Virus record (IMG/VR): IMGVR_UViG_3300042898_002521
Coordinates: 1-64,000 of that record
DNA from: a virus
DNA length: 64,000 bases
Strand: one strand, 5' to 3'
Below are positions 28,460-42,780 of this stretch, one piece after another. The position numbers were made by a program, and so were the translations under genes. The notes below the pieces were generated by a model. That model worked only from the letters and a program-made list of their open reading frames with translations, was not told where the DNA came from and searched no databases. The stretch's first letter is position 1, and each line of letters begins with the position of its first letter.

Positions 28460-28524
28460 TTAAACCTCTTTAAGAGTGGGATATCCTTATTAAAGGATAA
28501 AGGGGTTTTCTTTAATAGTCAGGC

Positions 28525-28803
28525 TTAATCAGAAGTGATTGTAAAAACAATAGCTGAAATATCGCCATCATGACTTGTAATAGTGGAAAACCCTGGAATG
28601 CACTTAAGGTCTAAACCTCTAGGAGCTGTGTAACCGCGTGCAATGGCAATAGCTTTAACAGCCTGGTTAACCGCGCCTGCGCCAACGGCACGAAGCTTGC
28701 AAGAATGATTTTCATAAATACTGTGGGCAATAGCCGCAGCCACTGACTGGGGGTTAGACCCAGCGCCAACTTTTAAAATTTGCTCGTCTTGTATTTCAGA
28801 CAT
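28525..28803 (-). CDS. spoVS: SpoVS family protein (Alba-like fold)
   Basis: LKVGAGSNPQSVAAAIA..RAVGAGAVNQAVKAIAIARGY..PGF is the SpoVS signature. Confidence 0.9.
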   Translation of the reverse strand: MSEIQDEQILKVGAGSNPQSVAAAIAHSIYENHSCKLRAVGAGAVNQAVKAIAIARGYTAPRGLDLKCIPGFSTITSHDGDISAIVFTITSD

Positions 28804-39964: not shown

Positions 39965-40029
39965 TGCCAGTTCTCTCCTAAGGGCAATACATAAAGTTTA
40001 CCCGAAGAAAGAATAATAATCTTGGCTTG

Positions 40030-40101
40030 CTCCCCGCCGTGGACTTGAACCACGAACATTTCGATTAACAGTCGAACGCTCTGCCATTGAGCTAGCAGGG
40101 A
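40030..40101 (-). tRNA. tRNA-Asn (GTT)
   Basis: TCCCTGC acceptor, TAGCTCAATGGCAGAGC D arm, CT-GTT-AA loop, GGTTCAAGTCC T arm. Confidence 0.92.
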
Positions 40102-40105
40102 TTAG

Positions 40106-40184
40106 TGGAGCAGTCGAGAGTCGAACTCGATTCCTAACATTTCCGACATGCGGAGTTAATGCCAGTCGATACCAAATCTGCCCC
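40106..40184 (-). ncRNA. tmRNA-like RNA reduced to the tRNA-like domain (no tag ORF)
   Basis: GGGGCAG/CUGCUCC-A acceptor with G3:U; stemless D loop ..GGUAUCGAC; helix 2a; GAA linker; T arm UCGAG-UUCGACU-CUCGA. Confidence 0.75.
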
Positions 40185-40193
40185 TGGTAGAAA

Positions 40194-40667
40194 TTAAACT
40201 CTACCATAGCGGACGTTAGACGTCCAGATACTTTCTATTCGTACACGGTGCCCGTGTTTAGGAGAATGAATAACCTTTCCATTACCTACATAAATTGCTA
40301 CATGGTAAGCGTAACCTTGCTTAGTGACAAAAAATACTAAGTCTCCTGGTTTTGCTTTTGAAGCAACAATTTTTGTGGCAATACGATATTGACCTTGTGC
40401 AGTTGGTGGCAACTTAATGCCCTGATGGTTATATACGTATTTTGTAAATCCAGAGCAATCAAAGCATCTGGGGTTTTGTCCACCCCGACAGTACGGGGTT
40501 CCGATATATTGTTTAGCAATAGCTACGATCGATTTAACCGCAACTTTTGTTTCGATTTTTGTCTGCATTTCATTAGCATTAGCCTGACCCTGGGCTACTG
40601 GTAGCGATACAAGTAAACTTGCAAGAAGCGCAATAGCGGTGGTCAGACGTTTGGTTCTGTCTAACAT
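40194..40667 (-). CDS. NlpC/P60 cell-wall peptidase, secreted
   Basis: GTPY..GG...FDCSG, PGDLVFF, HVAIY.GNG..IHS. Confidence 0.92.
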   Translation of the reverse strand: MLDRTKRLTTAIALLASLLVSLPVAQGQANANEMQTKIETKVAVKSIVAIAKQYIGTPYCRGGQNPRCFDCSGFTKYVYNHQGIKLPPTAQGQYRIATKIVASKAKPGDLVFFVTKQGYAYHVAIYVGNGKVIHSPKHGHRVRIESIWTSNVRYGRV

Positions 40668-42375: not shown

Positions 42376-42780
42376 CTATGCGTCTAGAATTGCCTGTGGA
42401 TTAAGACCTGCGCCTTTTTTCCAGCCTGGACCCTTTTGAAGTTCCATGTGAAGATGTGGACCCGTGACATTGCCTTCGGCTCCAACCTTCCCAATTACAT
42501 CTCCAACTGCAAGAGCTTGACCAACCTTGACGTTATTGGAAGATAGGTGAGCAAAAAGAAGGTGTCCACCTGCAACTTTCATTAATACGGAGTGTTGACC
42601 AAAGGCAGCACCCCAGCATTGACCAACTTTGACTACCTTGCCAGCTACAGGAGCAACAACTACAGCACCCGTTGGAGCAGCAAAGTCTACTCCTTCATGC
42701 TTTCCGCTGGACCATCGTTTCCCCGCGATACCCCAAGGTGTCGTGACCTTATACTTTTTATCTTTCATTGGTGAAGCCAT
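42376..42780 (-). CDS. M23 family peptidase
   Basis: HEGVD, AHLS, TGPHLHME. Confidence 0.9.
   Translation of the reverse strand: MASPMKDKKYKVTTPWGIAGKRWSSGKHEGVDFAAPTGAVVVAPVAGKVVKVGQCWGAAFGQHSVLMKVAGGHLLFAHLSSNNVKVGQALAVGDVIGKVGAEGNVTGPHLHMELQKGPGWKKGAGLNPQAILDA

Follow-up and report, generated by a model that had tools for sequence, protein, structure and literature searches.

A tag-less mini-tmRNA gene in a lake-water phage, a further member of the DS6A-type phage tmRNAs made of the tRNA-like domain only

Positions 40106-40184 (minus strand) of the window, by which we mean the whole 64,000-nt stretch of DNA analysed, are a genuine RNA gene and an unannotated further member of the DS6A-type phage tmRNAs, which consist of the tRNA-like domain (TLD) only. 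The window belongs to an IMG/VR virus record of 87.5 kb with 43.7% GC and an estimated completeness of 91%. Bacteria rescue stalled ribosomes and control protein quality mainly by trans-translation. The sequence and the parts of this mini-tmRNA had been described in an earlier note from the letters alone, and all letters, stems, loops and the linker were confirmed. The features of the locus are as follows.

40106-40184, minus strand: mini-tmRNA (TLD only), 79 nt from G1 to discriminator A79; 61.7 bits with the Rfam tmRNA model RF00023 and 85.7 bits with our own covariance model R1
40178-40184, minus strand: 5' strand of the acceptor stem, GGGGCAG, seen in the sequence, with G3 opposite U70
40166-40177, minus strand: stemless D-loop analogue AUUUGGUAUCGA, 12 nt unpaired, with conserved GG and UCGA
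40134-40165, minus strand: helix 2a (CUGGCAUU/AAUGUUAG), 8 bp around an AAC bulge and the apical hairpin UCCG-CAUGU-CGGA
40131-40133, minus strand: linker GAA from helix 2a to the T arm; the family consensus is GAC
40114-40130, minus strand: T arm UCGAG-UUCGACU-CUCGA; 99.6% of cells paired across relatives
40106-40113, minus strand: 3' strand of the acceptor stem, CUGCUCC, and discriminator A, seen in the sequence
40102-40105, minus strand: spacer CUAA, 4 nt, between the mini-tmRNA and tRNA-Asn
40029-40101, minus strand: tRNA-Asn(GUU), called by ARAGORN, 64 bits with the tRNA model RF00005; CCA likewise unencoded
40194-40667, minus strand: NlpC/P60-type peptidase gene (phrog_329, 5.7e-31), upstream of the mini-tmRNA

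The features of the tRNA-like domain of tmRNA were present, namely a 7-bp acceptor stem (GGGGCAG/CUGCUCC) with G3:U70, discriminator A, a stemless D-loop and a T arm. The minimum free energy fold was the proposed structure (-26.2 kcal/mol, z = -2.4). Inside helix 2a only a 13-nt hairpin of 4 bp with a CAUGU loop was found; it occupies the place of the pseudoknot and tag region of about 300 nt, and pseudoknots PK1-PK4 were absent from the RNA. Because the bases after the discriminator A are CUAA, CCA is unencoded, as the earlier note had said.

RF00023 matched positions 40103-40184 from end to end (model positions 1-374) with an E value of 1e-21 for the 64-kb window; the cut-off of the model is 47 bits, and ordinary tRNAs from three metagenome-assembled genomes (MAGs) reached at most about 42 bits. 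Match and fold together are far beyond chance. In the alignment, 306 internal model positions, which comprise the pseudoknots and the tag frame, were reduced to 14 nt, which bears out the claim that a small hairpin replaces this region, and no mRNA-like domain (resume codon, stop-terminated tag frame) was present. The mt-tmRNA model RF02544 gave no match to the mini-tmRNA at E <= 1, and ARAGORN, run on the window and on the genome, called tRNA-Asn and reported the mini-tmRNA neither as a tRNA nor as a tmRNA.

A second tmRNA piece was sought in the 87.5-kb genome, as the earlier note had proposed, but the RF00023 match was single and no separate coding piece was found. The permuted tmRNA model RF04321 scored 17.2 bits at the same spot as the mini-tmRNA. 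The evidence speaks against a two-piece (permuted) tmRNA: no coding piece was found, and a hairpin of its own closes helix 2a. A match to YrlA (Y RNA-like) was noise (15.5 bits against a cut-off of 69), and tmRNA calls made by ARAGORN with -ps80 elsewhere in the genome were spurious. A hidden tag frame, GCA-UGU-CGG-AAA-UGU-UAG, can be read in this mini-tmRNA and was rejected because no frame is conserved across the family: a GCN codon with an in-frame stop occurred in 8, 2 and 1 of 79 members in the three frames.

The earlier note stated that no phage TLD-only tmRNA was known. This has to be corrected, since mycobacteriophage DS6A has a published one, listed by Hudson, Lau and Williams 2014 (PMC4131195) as 'Mycobacterium phage DS6A (TLD only)'. 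According to what PMC4131195 and the 2025 tmRNA database paper (PMC11915505) relate, it is entry tmID 11587 of the tmRNA Website and goes back to Mao et al. 2009 (RNA Biol 6:355). We re-located the element at 28478-28560 of JN698994, where it is unannotated in the GenBank record; it scored 43.2 bits end to end with RF00023 and 71.6 bits with R1. RNAs of this class are taken to be phage-encoded, about 60-100 nt long and conserved as RNA, with both TLD halves, a short cap and both ends of the model matched. The RNA described here has all of these features, its conservation as RNA being seen in covariation and in conserved identity elements. Like the DS6A element, it is about 80 nt long and phage-encoded, has a GGGG...CUCCA acceptor with G3:U70, a stemless D-loop GG..UCGAC, a helix 2a with a small CCGCACGCGG-type hairpin cap, a T arm and discriminator A, and shows the internal deletion in RF00023. 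The two differ in that there is no BLAST-detectable sequence similarity between them, in lineage, in GC content (43.7% here), in habitat (lake water here), and in that the present copy is joined to a tRNA-Asn gene in a replication module. DS6A is temperate, whereas the present phage has no integrase.

With the bacterial one-piece tmRNA (ssrA, RF00023) the mini-tmRNA shares the whole tRNA-like domain and the alanine identity elements, but it has no resume codon, tag frame or pseudoknots. CDS-less tmRNAs are known from mitochondria and some plastids (PMC11915505). Those of jakobid mitochondria and Mallomonadaceae plastids (RF02544; PMC11915505) resemble the mini-tmRNA in having a TLD without a tag frame; they differ in being organellar, in co-occurring with a nuclear-encoded SmpB and in having a separate evolutionary origin, and RF02544 misses the mini-tmRNA. 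The closest man-made counterparts are TLD fragments such as the T. thermophilus construct of PDB 2CZJ, in which the 5' 25 nt and the 3' 34 nt are joined by a UUCG loop (PMC3929946); in vitro, such laboratory fragments have been found to bind SmpB and to be active on ribosomes (PMC3929946). The design is essentially shared, with an acceptor stem, a D-loop, a loop-closed helix 2a and a T arm. The mini-tmRNA, however, is a natural RNA, and in place of an arbitrary loop it has a conserved bulge rich in A and a hairpin, AAA-xCCx-CANG-xGGx-A.

Relatives were collected with patterns and a covariance model. A strict pattern found versions of 74-99 nt in 34 IMG/VR viral contigs. Most family sequences came from a second pattern, in which UCGAC and the T arm were fixed and the acceptor stem was free, and which matched at least 119 loci. 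R1 was built from 25 sequences of the GGGG/CUCC type including that of DS6A. Among the matches listed, R1 matched at full length in 60 of 85 loci that were new to the set, and the other loci of the second pattern appear to be class II tRNAs and 3' ends of full tmRNAs. In total, at least 79 distinct relatives were found in viral contigs, with lengths of 69-103 nt (mode 79 nt) and a locus GC content of 33-71%. When the 91-nt element was compared by BLAST with 50,697 phage records, nothing meaningful was matched; the family is visible only to patterns and covariance models.

The structure was conserved across these relatives. In a set of 54 sequences, 90.8% of cells formed a standard pair, and the covariation score was 0.579, compared to 0.131 for shuffled alignments (none of 500 reached the observed value) and at most 0.10 with slid partners. 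Changes on both sides of a pair were found in 7 of the 8 helix-2a pairs and in all 4 hairpin pairs; compensatory changes occurred in acceptor pairs 4-7, helix 2a, the cap hairpin and two T-stem pairs. In contrast to acceptor pairs 4-7, which vary freely, the alanine identity set was nearly invariant in the 79 members listed (G1-C72 in 79, G3:U70 in 78 and discriminator A in 79), counts that lean slightly to the GGGG/CUCC set, as R1 was trained on such sequences. In the D-loop the GG was conserved in 92-95% of the family; UCGAC was fixed by the search pattern. The linker had G in 99% and A in 100% of members, with C (75%) or A (13%) as the third base. CCA was encoded in only 22 of 78 members. 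Most members have the cap AAA-xCCx-CANG-xGGx-A (window 40142-40157 in the present copy), across loci of 33-71% GC; the apical loop, of 5 nt in the present copy, usually has 4 nt (CANG) in relatives. The A-rich run and GCC of this cap resemble a stretch, AAAGCCUC, of the full tmRNAs of Streptomyces phages Riptide and Tomas. The cap motif may be a remnant of that stretch or a functional contact.

Comparison with close relatives points to purifying selection on the RNA, because it outconserves its flanks in one relative and outlasts the adjoining tRNA gene in two others. In the first (L020), the mini-tmRNA was 96.6% identical and the flanks 71.6%, which speaks against decay in relatives, a possibility that the earlier note had raised. 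In the other two (L013 and L016), which are about 90% identical to this phage, the mini-tmRNA was kept and tRNA-Asn was lost. The tRNA-Asn thus is an indel between phages that are about 90% identical: at window 40012-40103, compared with 309-340 of L013 and 4190-4221 of L016, some 30 unrelated nt replace about 92 nt that include the tRNA.

When 185,579 prokaryotic genomes (596 Gb) were searched with the strict pattern, only 3 matches were obtained, all in metagenome-derived assemblies, and the elements of 2 of the 3 were identical to versions from viral contigs. Since there are only these three matches, the mini-tmRNA appears, on pattern matches, to be essentially a viral feature. The mini-tmRNAs of an Ilumatobacteraceae MAG contig (L123) and a Gemmatimonadetes MAG contig (L124) are identical to those of the viral contigs L008/L014 and L010/L015, respectively, and both MAG contigs are probably phage DNA binned with a genome. 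As regards mimicry of a host tmRNA, in two MAGs with a mini-tmRNA contig the tmRNA of the MAG differs from the mini-tmRNA at the variable acceptor and T-stem positions; as the binning of these contigs is doubtful, the comparison says nothing about hosts.

Copies were also present in cultured phages. R1 found 78-nt copies in Streptomyces phages BRock and GiJojo, and BLAST with the BRock copy added Tomas, Naboo, LuckySocke, Riptide, Alone3 and pSt2308. Thus, eight cultured Streptomyces phages carry a mini-tmRNA, and in none is it annotated. Four of these loci are given below.

BRock, KX925554 97143-97220, minus strand: mini-tmRNA found with R1, in an unannotated gap of a tRNA array
GiJojo, PP725410 17025-17102: mini-tmRNA found with R1, under the 'hypothetical protein' gene 44
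Riptide, PV654398 83298-83375: mini-tmRNA; the full tmRNA lies at 94862-95130
Tomas, NC_070781 88027-88108: mini-tmRNA; the full tmRNA lies at 97147-97421

The CDS of GiJojo gene 44 (PP725410 17023-17265) starts on top of the 78-nt mini-tmRNA, and this gene is probably an annotation artefact. The mini forms of Riptide and Tomas scored 41-45 bits with R1, with degenerate UCGAC and GGA motifs. Their full tmRNAs are 269-275 nt long, encode the tags ANSKFAFALAA and DNSNVAFALAA, which are of the degradation type (...ALAA), and lie about 9-11.5 kb from the mini form. Since both forms are found in these two phages, the mini-tmRNA can coexist with a complete phage tmRNA.

In the genome described here, the stop codon of the NlpC/P60 gene lies 9 nt before the mini-tmRNA. 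A scan for promoters and terminators around the mini-tmRNA gave nothing above shuffle expectation, including between this gene and the RNA. Because no such signal separates the two, the simplest reading is that the mini-tmRNA would be co-transcribed with the upstream NlpC/P60 gene and then undergo processing of the tRNA type. The mini-tmRNA and tRNA-Asn are probably on one precursor. The tRNA-Asn gene had been reported 4 nt from the mini-tmRNA; this is correct for the present genome, where it starts at 40101, but the arrangement is not fixed, since L013 and L016 have no tRNA there. Across the family, tRNA genes were located within 300 nt of 22 of 96 copies, and some copies lay inside large tRNA arrays. 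The neighbours on the minus strand encode a DnaB-like helicase, a primase, an M23-type peptidase, a helicase, the NlpC/P60 peptidase and a DNA polymerase. The stand-alone cell-wall peptidase genes of NlpC/P60 type (40194-40667) and M23 type (42376-42780) are located between helicase and primase genes; enzymes of lysis or associated with the tail are not usually encoded in a replication module. Genes that recurred within 3 kb of family members were those for portal, terminase, prohead protease and capsid, WhiB and M23 peptidase. No translation gene or factor recurred within this distance, including Pth-like and ArfB-like ones.

The closest cultured phages are BRock-type Streptomyces phages, with about 37% helicase identity. 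Metagenome contigs from lake water and freshwater, deriving from about 20 studies, contain the same DNA; none of the public runs listed as containing it is an RNA run. In each of two other lake metagenome runs, one contig spans both the mini-tmRNA and tRNA-Asn. The host may be a freshwater actinobacterium because of the likeness to Streptomyces phages in the helicase, the presence of WhiB near family members and the lake-water source.

Taken as a gene with a function, the element is, in the reading that we hold to be the most probable, with moderate confidence, a tag-less mini-tmRNA whose alanylated form competes for host SmpB and thereby blocks or diverts ssrA tagging. The two functions proposed in the earlier note, a decoy for SmpB/AlaRS and a tag-less rescue RNA, are both still to be reckoned with. 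The RNA would probably be transcribed with the leftward genes of the replication module and with tRNA-Asn. Its 5' end would be generated by RNase P and its 3' end by a 3' nuclease; CCA would be added, and the RNA would be charged with alanine by host AlaRS. The charged mini-tmRNA would then bind host SmpB and also EF-Tu. Having no reading frame, it would be a competitor of host tmRNA for SmpB and stalled ribosomes, and during infection ssrA tagging would consequently be blocked or diverted. For this phage we infer processing, charging, SmpB binding and a benefit. An SmpB gene was not found in the phage genome, which would leave host SmpB as the only available partner. Inhibition of tmRNA is suggested by analogy with DS6A in E. 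coli: PMC4131195, citing Mao et al. 2009, relates that tmRNA is strongly inhibited by a DS6A-like molecule whether or not this can be charged, perhaps because SmpB is titrated, and PMC11915505, citing the same work, that the DS6A form has an inhibitory effect on the endogenous tmRNA of E. coli. Although inhibition in E. coli needed no chargeable RNA (PMC4131195), the near-invariant alanine identity of the family speaks for a function of the charged RNA on the ribosome. A purely passive SmpB sponge is further argued against by the coexistence of mini and full tmRNA in Riptide and Tomas. This coexistence, with full tmRNAs that encode an ...ALAA tag, is also awkward for a simple model in which tagging is shut down.

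A tentative alternative, to which we give roughly half the weight of competition for SmpB, is rescue without a tag and not inhibition. Here the alanyl-mini-tmRNA might enter the stalled ribosome with SmpB and EF-Tu and take over the nascent chain. The product could conceivably be released free of a degron, by drop-off with Pth or hydrolysis of the ArfB type, or after addition of a few template-free alanines. Ribosomes would possibly be freed in this way and phage proteins spared ssrA-directed proteolysis. We retain this reading at that weight because the identity set is near-invariant and mini and full tmRNA coexist in Riptide and Tomas. Charging appears to be selected, since G3:U70 and A73 hardly change while neighbouring pairs covary. 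Moreover, polyalanine was made in vitro without a template when a TLD fragment was combined with SmpB (Shimizu and Ueda 2006, reviewed in PMC3929946), and jakobid mitochondria have kept CDS-less tmRNAs along with SmpB (PMC11915505). However, no release step is known for a peptidyl-Ala-TLD in the P site, no gene of the Pth-like or ArfB-like kind recurs beside family members, and the only in vivo datum in the accounts cited above is inhibition, by DS6A in E. coli. In a specific form, equally tentative, a charged mini-tmRNA entering the ribosome would perform rescue without a tag or with a short alanine tail, and the A-rich bulge and CANG hairpin would contact SmpB or the ribosome. If such rescue is true, phage proteins translated from non-stop or cleaved mRNAs would escape ssrA-directed proteolysis, and the retention of the mini form beside a full tmRNA in some phages would be explained.

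It is very unlikely that the element is a decaying, functionless remnant of a once full-length phage tmRNA. Full tmRNAs do occur in some phages, and the apical AAAGCC motif resembles the A-rich stretch of the Riptide and Tomas full tmRNAs mentioned above, but the length distribution of the family is narrow, compensatory changes occur in every helix, the identity elements are invariant over 79 distinct sequences from loci of 33-71% GC, and the element stays 96.6% identical where its flanks are at 72%. Even less credible is an attP core, i.e. a copy of the 3' end of host ssrA used for integration into the host tmRNA gene: many temperate elements do integrate in ssrA and carry its 3' end (PMC11915505, PMC9004378), but here the 5' and 3' halves are both present and pair together, a tyrosine integrase was not found in the phage genome (G000), the element is carried by Streptomyces phages whose relatives reportedly have no integrase and repressor genes, and in DS6A it lies about 10 kb from the integrase gene. 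Equally improbable is an aberrant tRNA such as a tRNA-Ala without a D-stem, which would account for the alanine-type acceptor stem, the normal T arm and the adjoining tRNA gene: the 7-nt anticodon loop by which the earlier note would have recognised a normal tRNA is missing, the apical loop having 5 nt here and mostly 4 in relatives, ARAGORN called none of 96 mini-tmRNA copies, and RF00005 alone, at E <= 1 over the whole genome, matched only tRNA-Asn.

Standard annotation is blind to the mini-tmRNA, as ARAGORN misses it and GenBank records are blank or show a hypothetical protein over the locus. The value of the present locus lies mainly in a correct annotation and in evidence of selection on the alanine identity set. 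Judged by DS6A, the single published example, the family would seem far smaller than it is. Since cultured Streptomyces phages carry the RNA, inhibition and rescue can be put to the test in a native host. If a small phage RNA does hijack or block trans-translation through SmpB, it would be a compact tool of host takeover.
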